Shown one piece after another: positions 2,865 to 43,207 of a stretch of DNA of 64,000 nt. The notes under the pieces were generated by a model, which was not told the DNA's origin, ran no database searches, and was given only the letters and a program-made list of their open reading frames with translations. The stretch is from the IMG/VR virus record IMGVR_UViG_3300014720_002669; one strand, written 5' to 3'. The stretch is from a virus. A program made the translations under genes and the position numbers. The stretch's first letter is position 1, and each line of letters begins with the position of its first letter.

Positions 2865-3335
2865 GTGTCAGACAGATATCCAATTTTCAAAATTCTCGAT
2901 GAATATCCAACCATAACCAGCGGCCTGGGCACAGACACCTTTACTGTGAGCACTGGTACAAGTTATCCAAATTATGGTGCTGTGCCTACCACAGGCACCG
3001 ACTGCGGCTATGTGTACACTTTGCCCAACACAGTACCTTGGATCTCCAGTGGTGGCAATGGTACCAGCATCAGTGATCCTTCTTTGAAAGTCAATCAAGG
3101 TGGAAAGATCCAAATGCAGGGACAAAATGCTGACATTGAGATCAATGGCAAAAGCATGAAGGCCTGGATGGAACAGGTGGAAGAGAGATTGAACATCTTG
3201 ACTGTCAACCCTGACATGGAAAAAGACTGGGATGACCTACGCAGACTGGGCGAACGCTACAAAAAGTTAGAGAAAAAGTGCCGAGAAAAAGCCCGCATGT
3301 GGGCAGAGTTAAAGAAAGTACAGATCAAACCATGA
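2865..3335 (+). CDS. Hypothetical protein with C-terminal coiled coil
   Basis: GTG after GGAG; overlaps the nadE start. Confidence 0.65.
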   Translation: MSDRYPIFKILDEYPTITSGLGTDTFTVSTGTSYPNYGAVPTTGTDCGYVYTLPNTVPWISSGGNGTSISDPSLKVNQGGKIQMQGQNADIEINGKSMKAWMEQVEERLNILTVNPDMEKDWDDLRRLGERYKKLEKKCREKARMWAELKKVQIKP

Positions 3336-4156
3336 CACCTAAACAACGCATCAAACACATTTCAAAATGGATCCAAGACTATGCCCGACGAGCAGGTGTA
3401 GATACCTTGGTAGTGGGCATTTCAGGCGGGATTGACAGCTCGGTTGTCAGTGCCTTGTGCGCCGAAACAGGACTCCGAACCATTGTGGTACAGATGCCCA
3501 TTCGTCAAAACCGGAAGCTGGACAATCTAAGTTCAGCACAGGCTGGCTGGTTGCTGGAACAATTCCCCCACAATGTCACACACATGAGCATGGACTTGAC
3601 CACAGTGTTTTCTGCATTTGAAAAGAAAGTGCAACCATTCTGTGCACCAGAACAAGAACCCAACGAGCGTGAACAACTGGCGTTTGCCAACTCACGTGCT
3701 AGATTGCGCATGATGACCCTGTATCAAATTGCACAGAGCCATGGTGGCATTGTGGTGGGCACAGGCAACAAGGTGGAAGATTTTGGTGTGGGATTTTTCA
3801 CCAAGTACGGCGACGGTGGCGTGGATATTTCACCCATTGGTGACTGCATGAAAACTGATGTGTGGGCCATGGGACAGGAACTGGGCTTGCTGGATGCCAT
3901 AATTGATGCCTCGCCCACAGACGGACTCTGGGCTGATGACCGCAACGACGAAGATCAACTGGGCATGTCCTACCCTGACCTTGAACGCATGATGAGATTG
4001 GACCTGTTGAAAGGGGCCAAGATCGTGGATTCAAACATGCCTGGCAGTGCCAAACTCAGTGCTGATGATCGTAAAAAACTAAAACGTTATAAAGAACTAC
4101 GTGCTCAAAATCAGCACAAGATGACTCCTGTCCCTGTTTGCATGATGCCTCGTTAA
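3332..4156 (+). CDS. nadE: NH3-dependent NAD+ synthetase
   Basis: VVGISGGIDSS PP-loop, ARLRM, GTGNKVE, GFFTKYGDG, PTDGLW, DEDQLG. Confidence 0.95.
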   Translation: MTPKQRIKHISKWIQDYARRAGVDTLVVGISGGIDSSVVSALCAETGLRTIVVQMPIRQNRKLDNLSSAQAGWLLEQFPHNVTHMSMDLTTVFSAFEKKVQPFCAPEQEPNEREQLAFANSRARLRMMTLYQIAQSHGGIVVGTGNKVEDFGVGFFTKYGDGGVDISPIGDCMKTDVWAMGQELGLLDAIIDASPTDGLWADDRNDEDQLGMSYPDLERMMRLDLLKGAKIVDSNMPGSAKLSADDRKKLKRYKELRAQNQHKMTPVPVCMMPR

Positions 4157-4230
4157 CTGCTATGTTAATGACAAAAACACACCATTTTGACAGTTTTTTG
4201 ACAGCCTTACAGCCAGATAAAATAAGTAAA

Positions 4231-4537
4231 AGTGGTGGTAGAACAACACATTGCAATCAAATAGGATCTTCTACTGCTGATTGGTACCTTGTCCAATTGA
4301 TTAAAACAAGTACCCGTAGCACTGACAAGGGTTTGTCCAAGCCCAAATCAGTGTTCGAAAGAGACTCTCGGAAAGTCTCTTCGTTGACAACTAGAATTGG
4401 ACAGGCTCATTTCCCAGGACGCGAGCTTGTCCCAAACGAGTATGCCAAGGAGGCCCGAGGTCTATCTATGCTCATCTCAACTGAACTTTTGTCAACGTGA
4501 TCTACTCGGGTCTCCGCGTACAGCCACGTATTGGCGT
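4231..4537 (+). ncRNA. Candidate large structured RNA or 5' leader with pseudoknots
   Basis: At least eight helices found by eye in the intergenic region, between TAAGTA (4223) and the SD of the hydrolase gene. Confidence 0.65.
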
Positions 4538-4551
4538 TTAAAGGAAATCGA

Positions 4552-5127
4552 ATGAAGTTTGTGAAAAATCAACCCAACGTGTTAGCAACATGGGCTGGAA
4601 CAATTATCAAAAGTGCGGCCCTATTTGTAGTGGCATTTGCAGTGTGGACAGTATGTGAATCAAGACTGAAAACTCTGAGCAATGATCGAGCAGCCAACAT
4701 GGCCGGCTACGTGTCAGCTGCCGACCGATTGAAACAACTCAACTGCTTGACTCAGAACATATACTGGGAAGCTGCCTCAGAGCCTTTTGAAGGCAAAGTG
4801 GCAGTGGCCCAGGTCACATTAAATAGAGTAGAGTCAGGTAAATTTGCCAACACAGTATGCGGTGTGGTCTATCAAAAGAATGTGTTCTACGAACGAGTGG
4901 TGTGTCAGTTTAGTTGGTTCTGTGAATCCACACACCGAACTAGACCGGTACATCGACCCATGTGGCAAGAAAGCGAACTAGTGGCCAAAAAAGTCCTATT
5001 GGAAGACTTCCGATTGCCCGGCATGAAAAATGCCTTGTACTATCACGCCGACTATGTCAACCCCAACTGGCGCTTGCCCCGAATTGACCAAATTGGTCGT
5101 CACATCTTTTATGGAGAAAAAATATGA
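4552..5127 (+). CDS. SleB-like cell wall hydrolase (Hydrolase_2)
   Basis: CLTQNIYWEA, GKVAVAQVTLNRV, CQFSW, YYHADYVNPNW, IGRHIFY; N-terminal TM anchor. Confidence 0.9.
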   Translation: MKFVKNQPNVLATWAGTIIKSAALFVVAFAVWTVCESRLKTLSNDRAANMAGYVSAADRLKQLNCLTQNIYWEAASEPFEGKVAVAQVTLNRVESGKFANTVCGVVYQKNVFYERVVCQFSWFCESTHRTRPVHRPMWQESELVAKKVLLEDFRLPGMKNALYYHADYVNPNWRLPRIDQIGRHIFYGEKI

Positions 5128-5435
5128 GCACTTGGCCCTTTAACCTGCAGACCATTCGTGATTTTTTGAACAATCACCTGCACCGGATTTCAGCAGATAC
5201 CCTGGGCTGGTTGGCAGCCATTGTGTTGCACTGTGCCACCATTCCCAGTTTGTTGGCCCTGATGACGGGCTTGAGTGATCATGTGCCCAGCTTGGATGTG
5301 GTGGCGTTTCTTTGGTCCGGCTTGGTACTGTTGTTCCTACGTGCTATTGTGCTGAAAGACACCTTGAACATTATCACCATTGGGGTGGGTTTTATAGTGC
5401 AAGCAGGACTCATGGCCCTGATACTGTTTAGATAA
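5124..5435 (+). CDS. Three-TM membrane protein
   Basis: Hydrophobic segments; coupled to the hydrolase gene. Confidence 0.75.
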   Translation: MSTWPFNLQTIRDFLNNHLHRISADTLGWLAAIVLHCATIPSLLALMTGLSDHVPSLDVVAFLWSGLVLLFLRAIVLKDTLNIITIGVGFIVQAGLMALILFR

Positions 5436-5441
5436 GACACT

Positions 5442-6644
5442 GTGGTCAACAAGTACACTCATATCTCTCAAGCAGATTATGAAACAGTGGCCGGCCCAGA
5501 TTGGCCACCTTTTGATTTCTTTCAATTGCATAAAAATGTGCCTGAGTTTGTGTACAAAGAGATCAACAACATGCTTAGGCCGGTTGAAGGATTTTCACAT
5601 CCTACATTTTGTGTGTTGCCATTCTATGCTATAGAGTATCCGGATAACACCCCATGTTGTTTGCTATCTGGAGTAGAATCCGTAAAAGCAATACAACAAC
5701 AAATGTTATCGGGGCAACGTCCAGAGTCTTGCAAAAAATGTTGGAAATTGGAAGATGCTGGTTTAAAAAGTGATAGACTTATTAAAAATGAAACACTGGA
5801 TCATTTCAGCAATGTCGATCTTGAACAATTGATAACTCAAAGTCAACTAGGCAAAAATAAAATCGTTCATTACAAGATTGATACAAGCAATACTTGTAAC
5901 GCTGCCTGTATGACTTGTGGCAGTGATTCAAGTAATACCTGGGGCAAACTACAGAAAAAAAATAACTTGCCCGCAAGGAAAAATTGGAAAATATTGCCCA
6001 ATCAAACAACAGATTGGATTGATTATGCTCACGCAAAATCTATATTGTTTAGAGGTGGCGAACCTTTTTTAAGTGATACTAATTTTTATATACTTGAACA
6101 ATTAATCAAGCATGACAACACTGATTGTTTTGTAAGTTTTGTAACCAATGGCAGTTTTTCTTTGTCTCGACGTCAAAAAGAAATCCTGGCAAAATTAAAA
6201 AACTTGCATTTTTGTTTTAGCATCGATGGCATTGGGCCTGTGTTTGAATATCTAAGATGGCCGTTGAAATGGACTGATATTGAAAACAACATAGCATGGT
6301 GTCAGGCAAACAATGTGAAAGTCAGTGTGAGTTATACCTTGAGCAATATAAATTTATTGTATCATACAACAACCACTCAATGGTTCCGTGATCATAACAT
6401 AAACTACTTGGTCAATCCTGTGTATTCCCCGGGTTATTTTCGTCCTGAATCATTGCCAGCAAAAATCAAACAACAACTGAGGCAACAACACAACATTGAT
6501 GCTATCAGTCAATGGCTGGCACATTCTCCCAGTGATGACAACTGGTTTGCAAAGTTTCAAATTGAAATTGCCAAACAAGACCACATGAAAAATATCAGCA
6601 TGCAAGACTATCTGCCCGAACTTGTAGAACTGTTAAAATGGTAA
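5442..6644 (+). CDS. Radical SAM protein (twitch/SPASM-type)
   Basis: CNAACMTC, GGEPF, VTNGS, SIDG; extra Cys cluster (PCC, CKKCW); AT-rich. Confidence 0.9.
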   Translation: MVNKYTHISQADYETVAGPDWPPFDFFQLHKNVPEFVYKEINNMLRPVEGFSHPTFCVLPFYAIEYPDNTPCCLLSGVESVKAIQQQMLSGQRPESCKKCWKLEDAGLKSDRLIKNETLDHFSNVDLEQLITQSQLGKNKIVHYKIDTSNTCNAACMTCGSDSSNTWGKLQKKNNLPARKNWKILPNQTTDWIDYAHAKSILFRGGEPFLSDTNFYILEQLIKHDNTDCFVSFVTNGSFSLSRRQKEILAKLKNLHFCFSIDGIGPVFEYLRWPLKWTDIENNIAWCQANNVKVSVSYTLSNINLLYHTTTTQWFRDHNINYLVNPVYSPGYFRPESLPAKIKQQLRQQHNIDAISQWLAHSPSDDNWFAKFQIEIAKQDHMKNISMQDYLPELVELLKW

Positions 6645-40957: not shown

Positions 40958-43207
40958 ATGAATAACCCAGAAATAGAACACATTGTTGAACAAGCAGTAA
41001 AGATTGCTCGAGAGAAAAAACATGAATATGTGTTGACTGAACACCTGTTGTTGGCCATGATTCGTCATCCAGCTCTGCGTCGGACCCTGGACAAGTACGG
41101 AGTAGAGATTACCCGGATGGATCAAGAAGTTGATGCCTATCTCAACGGACTCATGCACCTGGTGAAAGATCACGAAGATCTACAACCAAGAAAAACTCAA
41201 ACCCTGGAACGACTGTTCAATCGAGCCAATGTGCAGGCCATGTTCACTGGACGTAGACAACTGTCTGTGATAGACATTTATCTTTCGATCATGGCTGAAA
41301 CCAACAGTCATGCACACTACTTCTTGTTGAAGTACGGCGTGAAGAAAACAGATTTTGCAGAATTCTATCAGAAAAATTATGCCCAGAATGATGTGCGCAT
41401 GACTGATGTACAGGCCAATGACATCTTGACTGAGTACTGCACCAATCTCACTGAGCAGGCCAAGAATGATCAACTGGAACCCTTAATTGGACGCCAAACA
41501 GAACTGCACGAAATGATCACTGTGATGGCTCGACGCTTCAAAGCCAATGTGCTCATGGTGGGTGATCCTGGTGTGGGCAAGACCTGCATTGTGGATGGAC
41601 TTGCACAGGAAATCATTGCCGGACGTGTGCCCGAGTTTATCAAGAACCACGAAGTATGGGGTTTGGAAATTGGCAGCTTGCTGGCAGGATCCAAGTACCG
41701 CGGTGAGTTTGAAGAAAAGTTCAAGGCTGTGATTGCTGCCTTGGAAACCAAAAAGAAATGTATCCTGTTCATTGACGAAGCACACACCATGAAGGGTGCA
41801 GGATCCGGCTCAAACAGCAGTCTGGACTTTGCCAACATGCTGAAACCTGCAATCACCAAAGGCAACTTGAAAGTGATTGCGTCAACCACCTGGGAAGAAT
41901 ACTACGAGTCATTTGAGAAAGATCGCGCACTCATGCGTAGATTCTATAGACTCAGCATTGACGAGCCCGATACTGATACCACAGAAAAAATTCTAATAGG
42001 ATTGAGTCTTAGACTGGAAAAATTTCACAATGTTGAAATTGACACCGAAGCTATAATGGCCTCTGTGGAACTGGCCAACCGCTACATTCATGACCGTAAG
42101 AATCCTGACAAAGCCATTGACTTGCTGGATGCAAGTTGTGCCCGTGAGCGTGTGAAAGATGAAGGCACTGTTGTGATCACAAAAGAAATGATTCAGGCAC
42201 AAGTGAGTCGTGTGGCAGGTGTGCCTTTGGATCGCTTGCAGAACGAACGATCGGCAAAGATTGTAGATTTGGAAAGCAACATCAAGCAGAAGTTGTATGG
42301 ACAAGATTCGGCAGTGGAGGCTGTGTTGGAACGTGTATACATCAATTTTGCCGGCATTGGCAACGCAAAACGTCCTATCTCAAGTTTCTTGTTTTTGGGC
42401 CCAACTGGTACAGGCAAAACTGAACTGGCCAAACTCTTAAGCGAGCACTTGGAAATGAAACTGTTGCGATACGACATGAGTGAGTATCAGGAAAAGCACA
42501 CAGTCAGTAGTTTGATCGGTGCACCTCCGGGCTACGTGGGCTTTGAAGATGGCAATGTGGGCGGTGGCAAACTGATTTCAGACATCAGCAAAAATCCCTA
42601 TGCCATCATCTTGTTTGATGAAATTGAAAAAGCACATTCAGATGTGACCAACATCCTGTTGCAGATGTTAGACGAAGGACACATTACGTCAGCCAACGGC
42701 AAACGAGTGGATGTGAAAAACTGCATCATTATCATGACCAGTAACTTGGGCGCACAGGCCAATGACGCCAACAACATTGGGTTTGGTAGCTTGGAGAAGT
42801 CAGGCGAAGAAGATCGTGCAATGAAAGACTTCTTCCGCCCAGAACTGCGCAATCGTATTGATCGAATCTGCAAGTTCACCAAATTGGACACACTTGCCAT
42901 CAAGAAAATTGTGTTGAAGTTTGTGGACGAACTCAAAGCCAGTATGACACACAAGAACATTAAATTGTTGTTGAGTGAGCCGGTGATTGACCACTTGGCT
43001 GACAAGGGTTATGACAGCAAAATGGGCGCACGTCCCTTGAGTCGCAAGATTGATGAGCTGATCCGTGTGCCACTCAGCAAGCGGATGCTGTTTGATCGCT
43101 TGGAGAATTGCACAATCACCGCTGTGATGCGGGATGATGCTGTGGAATTTGAAATTGAACAAGACGCTGTGCCTACAATAAATGCCGAAGGAATCATCAT
43201 TGTATAA
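40958..43207 (+). CDS. clpA: ATP-dependent Clp protease ATP-binding subunit ClpA
   Basis: Clp-N domain, GDPGVGKT, GPTGTGKT, LIGAPPGYVG, IGF loop. Confidence 0.93.
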   Translation: MNNPEIEHIVEQAVKIAREKKHEYVLTEHLLLAMIRHPALRRTLDKYGVEITRMDQEVDAYLNGLMHLVKDHEDLQPRKTQTLERLFNRANVQAMFTGRRQLSVIDIYLSIMAETNSHAHYFLLKYGVKKTDFAEFYQKNYAQNDVRMTDVQANDILTEYCTNLTEQAKNDQLEPLIGRQTELHEMITVMARRFKANVLMVGDPGVGKTCIVDGLAQEIIAGRVPEFIKNHEVWGLEIGSLLAGSKYRGEFEEKFKAVIAALETKKKCILFIDEAHTMKGAGSGSNSSLDFANMLKPAITKGNLKVIASTTWEEYYESFEKDRALMRRFYRLSIDEPDTDTTEKILIGLSLRLEKFHNVEIDTEAIMASVELANRYIHDRKNPDKAIDLLDASCARERVKDEGTVVITKEMIQAQVSRVAGVPLDRLQNERSAKIVDLESNIKQKLYGQDSAVEAVLERVYINFAGIGNAKRPISSFLFLGPTGTGKTELAKLLSEHLEMKLLRYDMSEYQEKHTVSSLIGAPPGYVGFEDGNVGGGKLISDISKNPYAIILFDEIEKAHSDVTNILLQMLDEGHITSANGKRVDVKNCIIIMTSNLGAQANDANNIGFGSLEKSGEEDRAMKDFFRPELRNRIDRICKFTKLDTLAIKKIVLKFVDELKASMTHKNIKLLLSEPVIDHLADKGYDSKMGARPLSRKIDELIRVPLSKRMLFDRLENCTITAVMRDDAVEFEIEQDAVPTINAEGIIIV

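Follow-up and report, generated by a model that had tools for sequence, protein, structure and literature searches.

The 64-kb stretch of viral DNA analyzed here, referred to as the window, comes from a large, uncultivated phage that encodes tail-fibre, head and ATP-dependent protease genes and for which no close relatives were found among cultured phages. A 749-aa protein encoded at 40958-43207 (+) matches PHROG 4871 (ATP-dependent protease) with an E value of 6e-236 and is a large AAA+ protease. On the plus strand, the NAD synthase gene nadE (3278-4156, PF02540; stop codon 4154-4156) is separated by a 395-nt spacer (4157-4551) from a SleB-type Hydrolase_2 gene (4552-5127, +; Pfam PF07486, 3e-24), whose ATG start codon (4552-4554) is preceded by the Shine-Dalgarno sequence (SD) AAGGA at 4541-4545 and whose product is hydrophobic at its N-terminus. 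The PHROG matches of the hydrolase are to endolysin families, and among cultured phages, including those of Stenotrophomonas and Providencia, homologues with identity up to 41% are annotated as endolysins. The following gene (5124-5435, +), which shares 4 nt with the hydrolase gene at its stop codon and is probably co-expressed with it, encodes a 103-aa hydrophobic protein that gave no PHROG or Pfam match and shares 68% identity with the product of the same-position gene in the distant locus L094; it is a candidate for the holin or pinholin that would act together with a signal-anchored endolysin. Judged from their sequences, the hydrolase and the 103-aa protein look like a lysis cassette. The genes flanking this cassette, nadE and a radical-SAM enzyme gene (5442-6644), both on the plus strand, are auxiliary metabolic genes, and the nadE DNA is 71-81% identical to that of Pelagibacter and Synechococcus phages over about 100-200 nt.

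A first-pass annotation of the window had proposed that the spacer contains a large structured RNA, absent from known families and tied to the peptidoglycan hydrolase gene. When the hydrolase was used as the query in IMG/VR, 80 loci were retrieved; in the six closest, the whole spacer was 86-94% identical, compared to only 75-79% for the hydrolase protein. The element was present in 15 of the 80 hydrolase loci as judged by nhmmer and a covariance model. A search with the core pattern AAGAG-N5-CGG-N5-CTCTTCGTTGACAA matched 23 IMG/VR stretches and 83 JGI metagenome stretches, and it returned no match in GTDB (~185,000 species, one genome each), a search for the exact pattern that divergent copies could escape; the spacer had no blastn match in the genomes of cultured phages. 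The element is thereby known from about 100 uncultivated phage contigs, and 93 distinct core-bearing sequences were reduced to 40 representatives less than 95% identical to each other. The hydrolase gene lies downstream in all 88 stretches with at least 200 nt of downstream sequence, 87 of them by tblastn, the 88th ending at a contig edge but showing the hydrolase N-terminus. The window carries one copy of the element, and no other gene context was seen in the window or among the 88 downstream stretches.

The upstream side is less constant. In many relatives (L094 5119-5703 (-); L051, L088, L098, L143 and others) the upstream gene is one other than nadE and encodes a ~190-aa protein with the C-terminus ...L.ELG..YR.LE..LKE...MW.KLK.MPPP and no PHROG match. 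Given how often the upstream gene differs, the link to nadE is incidental, and with it falls the earlier hint, taken from nadE, of an NAD-related ligand. Distant hydrolase genes (L045-L080) do not have the UAAGUA module described below; they have a conserved GTTATATAAAACTACAACC box ~20-45 nt upstream of the start, before a strong SD, and by sequence this box looks like a T4-type late promoter.

We aligned the 40 representatives with MAFFT and measured pairing in the annotated helices. These helices are paired in 85.7% of cells, compared to 30-43% when the partners were slid, and their covariation score is 0.283, compared to at most 0.115 for the slid controls; none of 500 shuffles reached any of these measures. 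Covariation among homologues, which the first-pass annotation had suggested looking for, is therefore present above both kinds of control. Paired cells contain 161 G-U and 44 A-C combinations, and this excess assigns the RNA to the plus strand, in line with the RNA-level selection previously read from the many G-U pairs; the fold z-score against shuffles is -3.16 on the plus strand and -1.11 on the minus strand. An unbiased column-pair covariation scan was set aside, as clade signal dominates it beyond the annotated helices, and RNAalifold under-predicts on MAFFT alignments owing to register shifts. Altogether, the alignments and searches show that a conserved, covarying RNA structure exists and that it is invariably linked to the hydrolase gene; conservation, covariation, G-U excess, the lack of any Rfam match and the 88/88 linkage bear out the main proposal of the earlier annotation.

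The window RNA is a noncoding, structured RNA of ~400 nt occupying about 4150-4551 on the plus strand. All strings quoted in the first-pass annotation lie at the coordinates given there. It had placed the start of the RNA just after TAAGTA (4223-4228), but this hexamer is an internal invariant motif. Since the 5' module is shared, a promoter lies just before P1 in 17 of the 40 representatives and P1 spans the nadE stop in the window clade, the 5' end falls at ~4150 and not at 4231. Common to all forms are P1, (G)GCAAAAAC, U-runs with a variable hairpin, and the invariant UAAGUA. Hairpin P1 (4152-4169, +; GUUAAC/GUUAAU) includes the nadE stop codon, and its homologue in relatives sits directly after a sigma-70 promoter. 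Its pairing is 73%, compared to at most 50% when slid, and its covariation is 0.276, compared to a maximum of 0.158 (2/500 shuffles); these values lend moderate support to P1 as a genuine hairpin. The rest of the module (4170-4222, +), comprising (G)GCAAAAAC, the U-runs AUUUUG (4184-89) and GUUUUUUG (4193-4200) and a variable stretch, is almost unchanged among seven close sequences, and the A-run and U-run occur in all forms. The module ends in UAAGUA (4223-4228, +), its sole fully invariant block in 38 diverse sequences. We considered TAAGTA as a phage promoter and rejected it: CTAAGTA does not occur in the 64 kb and ATAAGTA occurs twice, the second time spanning a stop codon.

Beyond UAAGUA the RNA is modular. 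In the short form, which is the commonest, an AUG follows ~8 nt after UAAGUA; medium forms have an extra domain, IIa, with a three-way junction; in minimal long forms (L098, L128) UAAGUA runs almost directly into the core; and the window RNA, like most long forms, combines IIa and two hairpins of IIb with the core. In the window, domain IIa (4234-4278, +) consists of the stem GGUGGUAGAA/UUCUACUGCU around a reduced junction. In other clades this stem closes the three-way junction, and in medium forms IIa occurs alone. The stem had been noticed previously (4234-43/4269-78) and is kept elsewhere with other sequences (GUGCAAA/UUUGCAC, GUGUAGA/UCUACAC, GAGUAGA/UCUACUC). Hairpin 1 of domain IIb (4283-4314, +), whose loop holds the first UUGUCCAA, was likewise recovered from the earlier set (4283-92/4306-14): every long form is predicted to have a hairpin here, the stems being unrelated in sequence. 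Hairpin 2 (4318-4355, +) presents the conserved apical loop UUUGUCCAAG at 4332-4341. Its native sequences fold with a mean of -8.7 kcal/mol, compared to -4.0 kcal/mol for cross-clade chimeras, which upholds the pairing 4318-25/4348-55 enclosing GGG/CCC, and compensatory changes are found even inside the window clade. In single-sequence folds, the three-part domain II recurs in all clades. In the window clade, the loop of 4283-4314 carries a second UUGUCCAA. Two copies of TTGTCCAA (4289-4296 and 4333-4340) had been suggested to compete for one partner as a switch; as the two copies exist in the window clade only, such a switch does not generalize.

The core comprises ~190 nt, most likely closed by UUGACAA/UUGUCAA and ending in an H-type pseudoknot before the SD. 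It contains hairpin H1 (4359-4381, +; 4359-65/4375-81, AAGAGAC/GUCUCUU), which has the invariant loop UCGGAA and is 100% paired, five of its pairs being fixed by the search pattern and two having changed on both sides. Of the longer helix previously drawn here (4356-66/4374-83), the AAGAGAC/GUCUCUU part with its two covarying pairs stands, while the outer CG/CG extension is lost. The long-range helix H2 (CGUUGACAA at 4382-4390 with UUGUCAACG at 4489-4497, +) is 87% paired and conserved in sequence, with no covariation; it survives from the earlier model by conservation only, without compensatory change, and from its sequence is a plausible closing helix. Hairpin Pc (4397-4435, +), with an internal loop containing GGAC at 4417-4420, is the opposite case, as all 12 of its 12 pairs have changed on both sides and it is 86-89% paired. 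Hairpin Y (4451-4463, +; 4451-54/4460-63, AGGC/GUCU, loop CCGAG) is 89% paired with little variation and no covariation, its stem being constant and its loop variable in length; an alternative hairpin, GCC 4444-46/GGC 4452-54, has its 5' strand in common with Y. A helix around Y is possible (4438-4473, +), formed by GAGUAU 4438-43 and AUGCUC 4468-73: the duplex energy is -6.9 with its own partner and -5.6 with foreign ones, the own partner being better in 29 of 40, which weakly supports a helix enclosing Y. Hairpin Pe (4499-4512, +; GAUC/GGUC) is weak in the window clade, where its base pairs are broken in some members; in other clades it alternates between GCUCA/UGAGC, GCCCA/UGGGC and GUUCA/UGAAC and is 90% paired, with two covarying pairs.

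Immediately upstream of the SD lies the H-type pseudoknot (4516-4535, +), in which S1 (GCGU 4516-19/ACGU 4526-29) crosses S2 (GCC 4523-25/GGC 4533-35). S1 occurs in five covarying types (GCUG/CAGU, GCGU/ACGU, GCAG/CUGU(C), GGUG/CACU and GCCG/CGGU), and when strands were swapped between sequences, the foreign strand fitted in 13% of cases; all five of the five S2 pairs covary. In all homologues the SD begins 1-6 nt 3' of S2, outside the pseudoknot. This pseudoknot was missed in the first-pass annotation, which had listed eight helices; five of these persist, and the three long-range or pseudoknot helices give way to local hairpins and to this different, covarying pseudoknot. Among the three, 4291-98/4395-4402 has a 3' strand that overlaps the 5' strand of the covarying Pc and is absent outside the window clade, and 4442-48/4531-37 lacks conservation. 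The third, 4449-59/4505-15, is absent in other clades and within the window clade retains just CCCGAG/CUCGGG; changes in its center are not compensated, and the conserved hairpin Y (4451-54/4460-63) is incompatible with it.

Two distant elements of the RNA appear to be coupled. Loop UUUGUCCAAG of domain IIb and GGAC (4417-4420) of the Pc internal loop occur together in 31 of 31 representatives, and both are missing in the other 9 of 9. In L092 both partners are altered, to UUUUCUAAA and AGAACA. From this co-occurrence, the loop probably docks on GGAC in a tertiary contact.

We then weighed whether the region could be something other than an RNA element. The ORF at 4138-4500, or its portion from ATG 4162, would encode ~112 aa, and in the window and L089 clades, as in L091 and L100, one frame runs for 125-144 codons without a stop. 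The first-pass annotation had stated that translation of this ORF would speak against its RNA, but the ORF is not conserved: in L099, L111 and L096, all close relatives, it is only 59-72 codons long, and in most clades it is missing or has fewer than 60 codons. In addition, variable columns are spread over the codon phases as 27/24/22, the stems change through compensatory pairs, no Pfam match was found for the product, and ATG 4162 has no SD, so that a protein-coding region is extremely improbable. An element acting as DNA, i.e., an origin, packaging site or operator array of inverted repeats such as TTGACAA/TTGTCAA, would account for the many inverted repeats and for the conservation of the TTGACA-like boxes and H2 without covariation. 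It is also very improbable, given the ratio of G-U to A-C combinations (161 vs 44), the difference in fold z-score between the strands, the covarying pseudoknot and the fixed orientation relative to promoter and gene.

A sigma-70 promoter matching TTGACA-17-TATAAT at 10-12 of 12 positions is found in 17 of the 40 representatives and ends 66-86 nt before UAAGUA, directly in front of P1, whereas the window clade has no recognizable promoter of its own. As this clade lacks the promoter and P1 spans the nadE stop, transcription of the window RNA probably begins further upstream and continues into it. The promoter scan found no sigma-70-like site in 4157-4551, and a promoter assembled from the internal TTGACA boxes of the window was rejected on their spacings of 14, 19 or 25 nt. 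No terminator-like site was found between the RNA and the hydrolase gene. CUCUUCGUUGACAA resembles the boxA of lambda nut, and GCC-AAGAA-GGC its boxB, with the spacing wrong. With regard to translation, the SD is unpaired in the MFE fold, and its mean unpaired probability is 0.44, compared to 0.41 for shuffled leaders, in nested-structure ensembles computed without pseudoknots or tertiary contacts. Because SD accessibility equals that of shuffled leaders, the mechanism is not simple occlusion. Many homologues start their hydrolase genes with UUG or GUG.

In favor of a cis-acting leader are the constant position of the RNA, the start of the SD right behind the pseudoknot, the absence of a terminator and the many hydrolase genes that begin with UUG or GUG. 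On balance, we consider it probable that the RNA is a cis-acting 5' leader of the lysis-cassette mRNA that sets when or how much of the cassette is translated; counting against this reading are an SD accessibility like that of shuffled leaders, the lack of a recognizable promoter in the window clade, the conservation of H2 and Y without covariation, and the short form, without the core, which serves most close hydrolase relatives. That the RNA regulates, and in what manner, we infer. An alternative is a stand-alone RNA, i.e., a trans-acting ncRNA, RNA-protein scaffold or ribozyme, with its own promoter and a transcription unit shared with the hydrolase. Such an RNA would suit the strong dedicated promoter in 17 of 40 representatives, a 5'-terminal hairpin as is usual in stable RNAs, the ~12 helices, the pseudoknot and the probable contact between loops, conservation stronger than that of the neighboring proteins, the absence of SD occlusion, and a size, modularity and conservation beyond the needs of most leaders. 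It fits poorly with the constant coupling to one gene, the SD following the last helix after only 1-6 nt with no intervening terminator, and with an element found nowhere else in the window and in no other gene context; no Rfam ribozyme or ncRNA family was matched either. We regard the stand-alone RNA as rather unlikely but as a serious alternative.

The leader could also be a passive, ligand-free one, whose fold lowers the translation of a long transcript from an early promoter, or makes that transcript unusually stable, while lysis is timed via the choice of promoter or processing site. The gene is of the endolysin type, a host-type promoter precedes the leader, and in distant relatives the gene has a T4-late-promoter-like TATATAAAAC box ~20 nt before the SD, all as such a leader would have it. 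What makes it improbable is that neither the predicted ensembles nor the MFE fold sequester the SD, that no sigma-70-like promoter was found within 4157-4551, and that the invariant unpaired UCGGAA, UUCGAAAG and GUAUGCCAAAGAAGG favor specific recognition over bulk structure.

Our preferred reading, the cis-acting leader, would work as follows. The RNA would form the 5' leader of an mRNA that encodes both the Hydrolase_2 protein, of endolysin type, and the small membrane protein after it, laid out as the 5' module, domain II (a junction and two hairpins, with the UUUGUCCAAG loop docking on GGAC), the core, the pseudoknot and the SD. It would act in cis on the timing or amount of lysis-cassette translation, possibly by binding a factor such as a small ligand or a protein of the phage or its host, or possibly as a folded platform beside the ribosome-binding site. 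The invariant unpaired blocks (UCGGAA, UUCGAAAG and GUAUGCCAAAGAAGG) suggest, by their conservation, recognition of a ligand or protein. A more specific version, which we put forward only tentatively and hold to be possible rather than probable, would place the RNA in a new class of large sensor RNAs (a riboswitch for a metabolite or second messenger, a dedicated protein-RNA switch or a ribozyme) that time lysis by gating translation of the signal-anchored endolysin and the membrane protein, with optional domains docking via the UUUGUCCAAG-GGAC contact. As the RNA is located before a phage lysis cassette, it may represent a new layer of lysis timing control.

We compared the RNA with known families and systems. 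At gathering thresholds, Rfam 15 (4227 models) gave no match in the whole window; at E<=10, the 4050-4650 region gave only chance snoRNA or lncRNA matches (E 0.16-3.9), and at E<=1, 13 diverse homologues gave nothing on the element. ARAGORN found no tRNA or tmRNA gene in the window, which has no such Rfam match either. In L091, a partial tRNA-like match of 26.6 bits (below threshold) lies at the contig end (1-46, +), ~1.2 kb 5' of the leader. The RNA is thus an unrecognized one, outside all Rfam 15 families, as the first-pass annotation had anticipated.

The c-di-AMP riboswitch (ydaO-yuaA, RF00379) is likewise a large pseudoknotted leader and is often found upstream of cell-wall hydrolase genes. 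The window RNA does not match RF00379 (E<=10 in the window, E<=1 in the 13 homologues), and the conserved nucleotides differ; it is also about twice as long, was found in phage contigs only, and has a helix order that is not pseudo-symmetric. The preQ1-II and SAM-II/V riboswitches and the T4 gene 32 leader likewise place an H-type pseudoknot, which covaries in our element, directly 5' of the ribosome-binding site. Unlike in the preQ1-II/SAM-II type, the SD here lies outside the pseudoknot, the pseudoknot makes up only the last ~20 nt of a 400-nt RNA, and no family match was obtained. In phage T4, too, an endolysin gene, the lysozyme gene e, has mRNA structure in front of it: its transcripts from upstream promoters carry the structure, and lysis timing depends on the promoter or processing site. 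In gene e one simple hairpin buries the ribosome-binding site, whereas the element described here has a multi-domain fold in which the SD is not buried in predictions.

Few RNAs of 200-450 nt are known to combine this many conserved helices with a pseudoknot and invariant unpaired nucleotides, and those that do have historically proved to be ribozymes, large riboswitches or the cores of RNA-protein machines. The alignment of 40 representatives, drawn from about 100 contigs, is a basis on which a new RNA family could be defined and its structure determined, and the natural short, medium and long versions provide a built-in deletion series. Using the same data source and the same cis-regulatory idea, Fremin et al. 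2023 (PMC10690425) described candidate structured RNAs from IMG/VR of 29-151 nt, assigned as cis-regulatory within 25 nt of phage genes; these are shorter than the window RNA, and a leader of a hydrolase or lysis gene is not named in the text of that article, where the word 'hydrolase' does not appear. Fragments of the window RNA may be listed, unnamed, in its supplementary tables. GOLLD and ROOL are likewise large, complex and conserved RNAs of phages and prophages; no Rfam match connects them with the window RNA, which is smaller and is the fixed leader of one gene rather than an RNA located near tRNAs.
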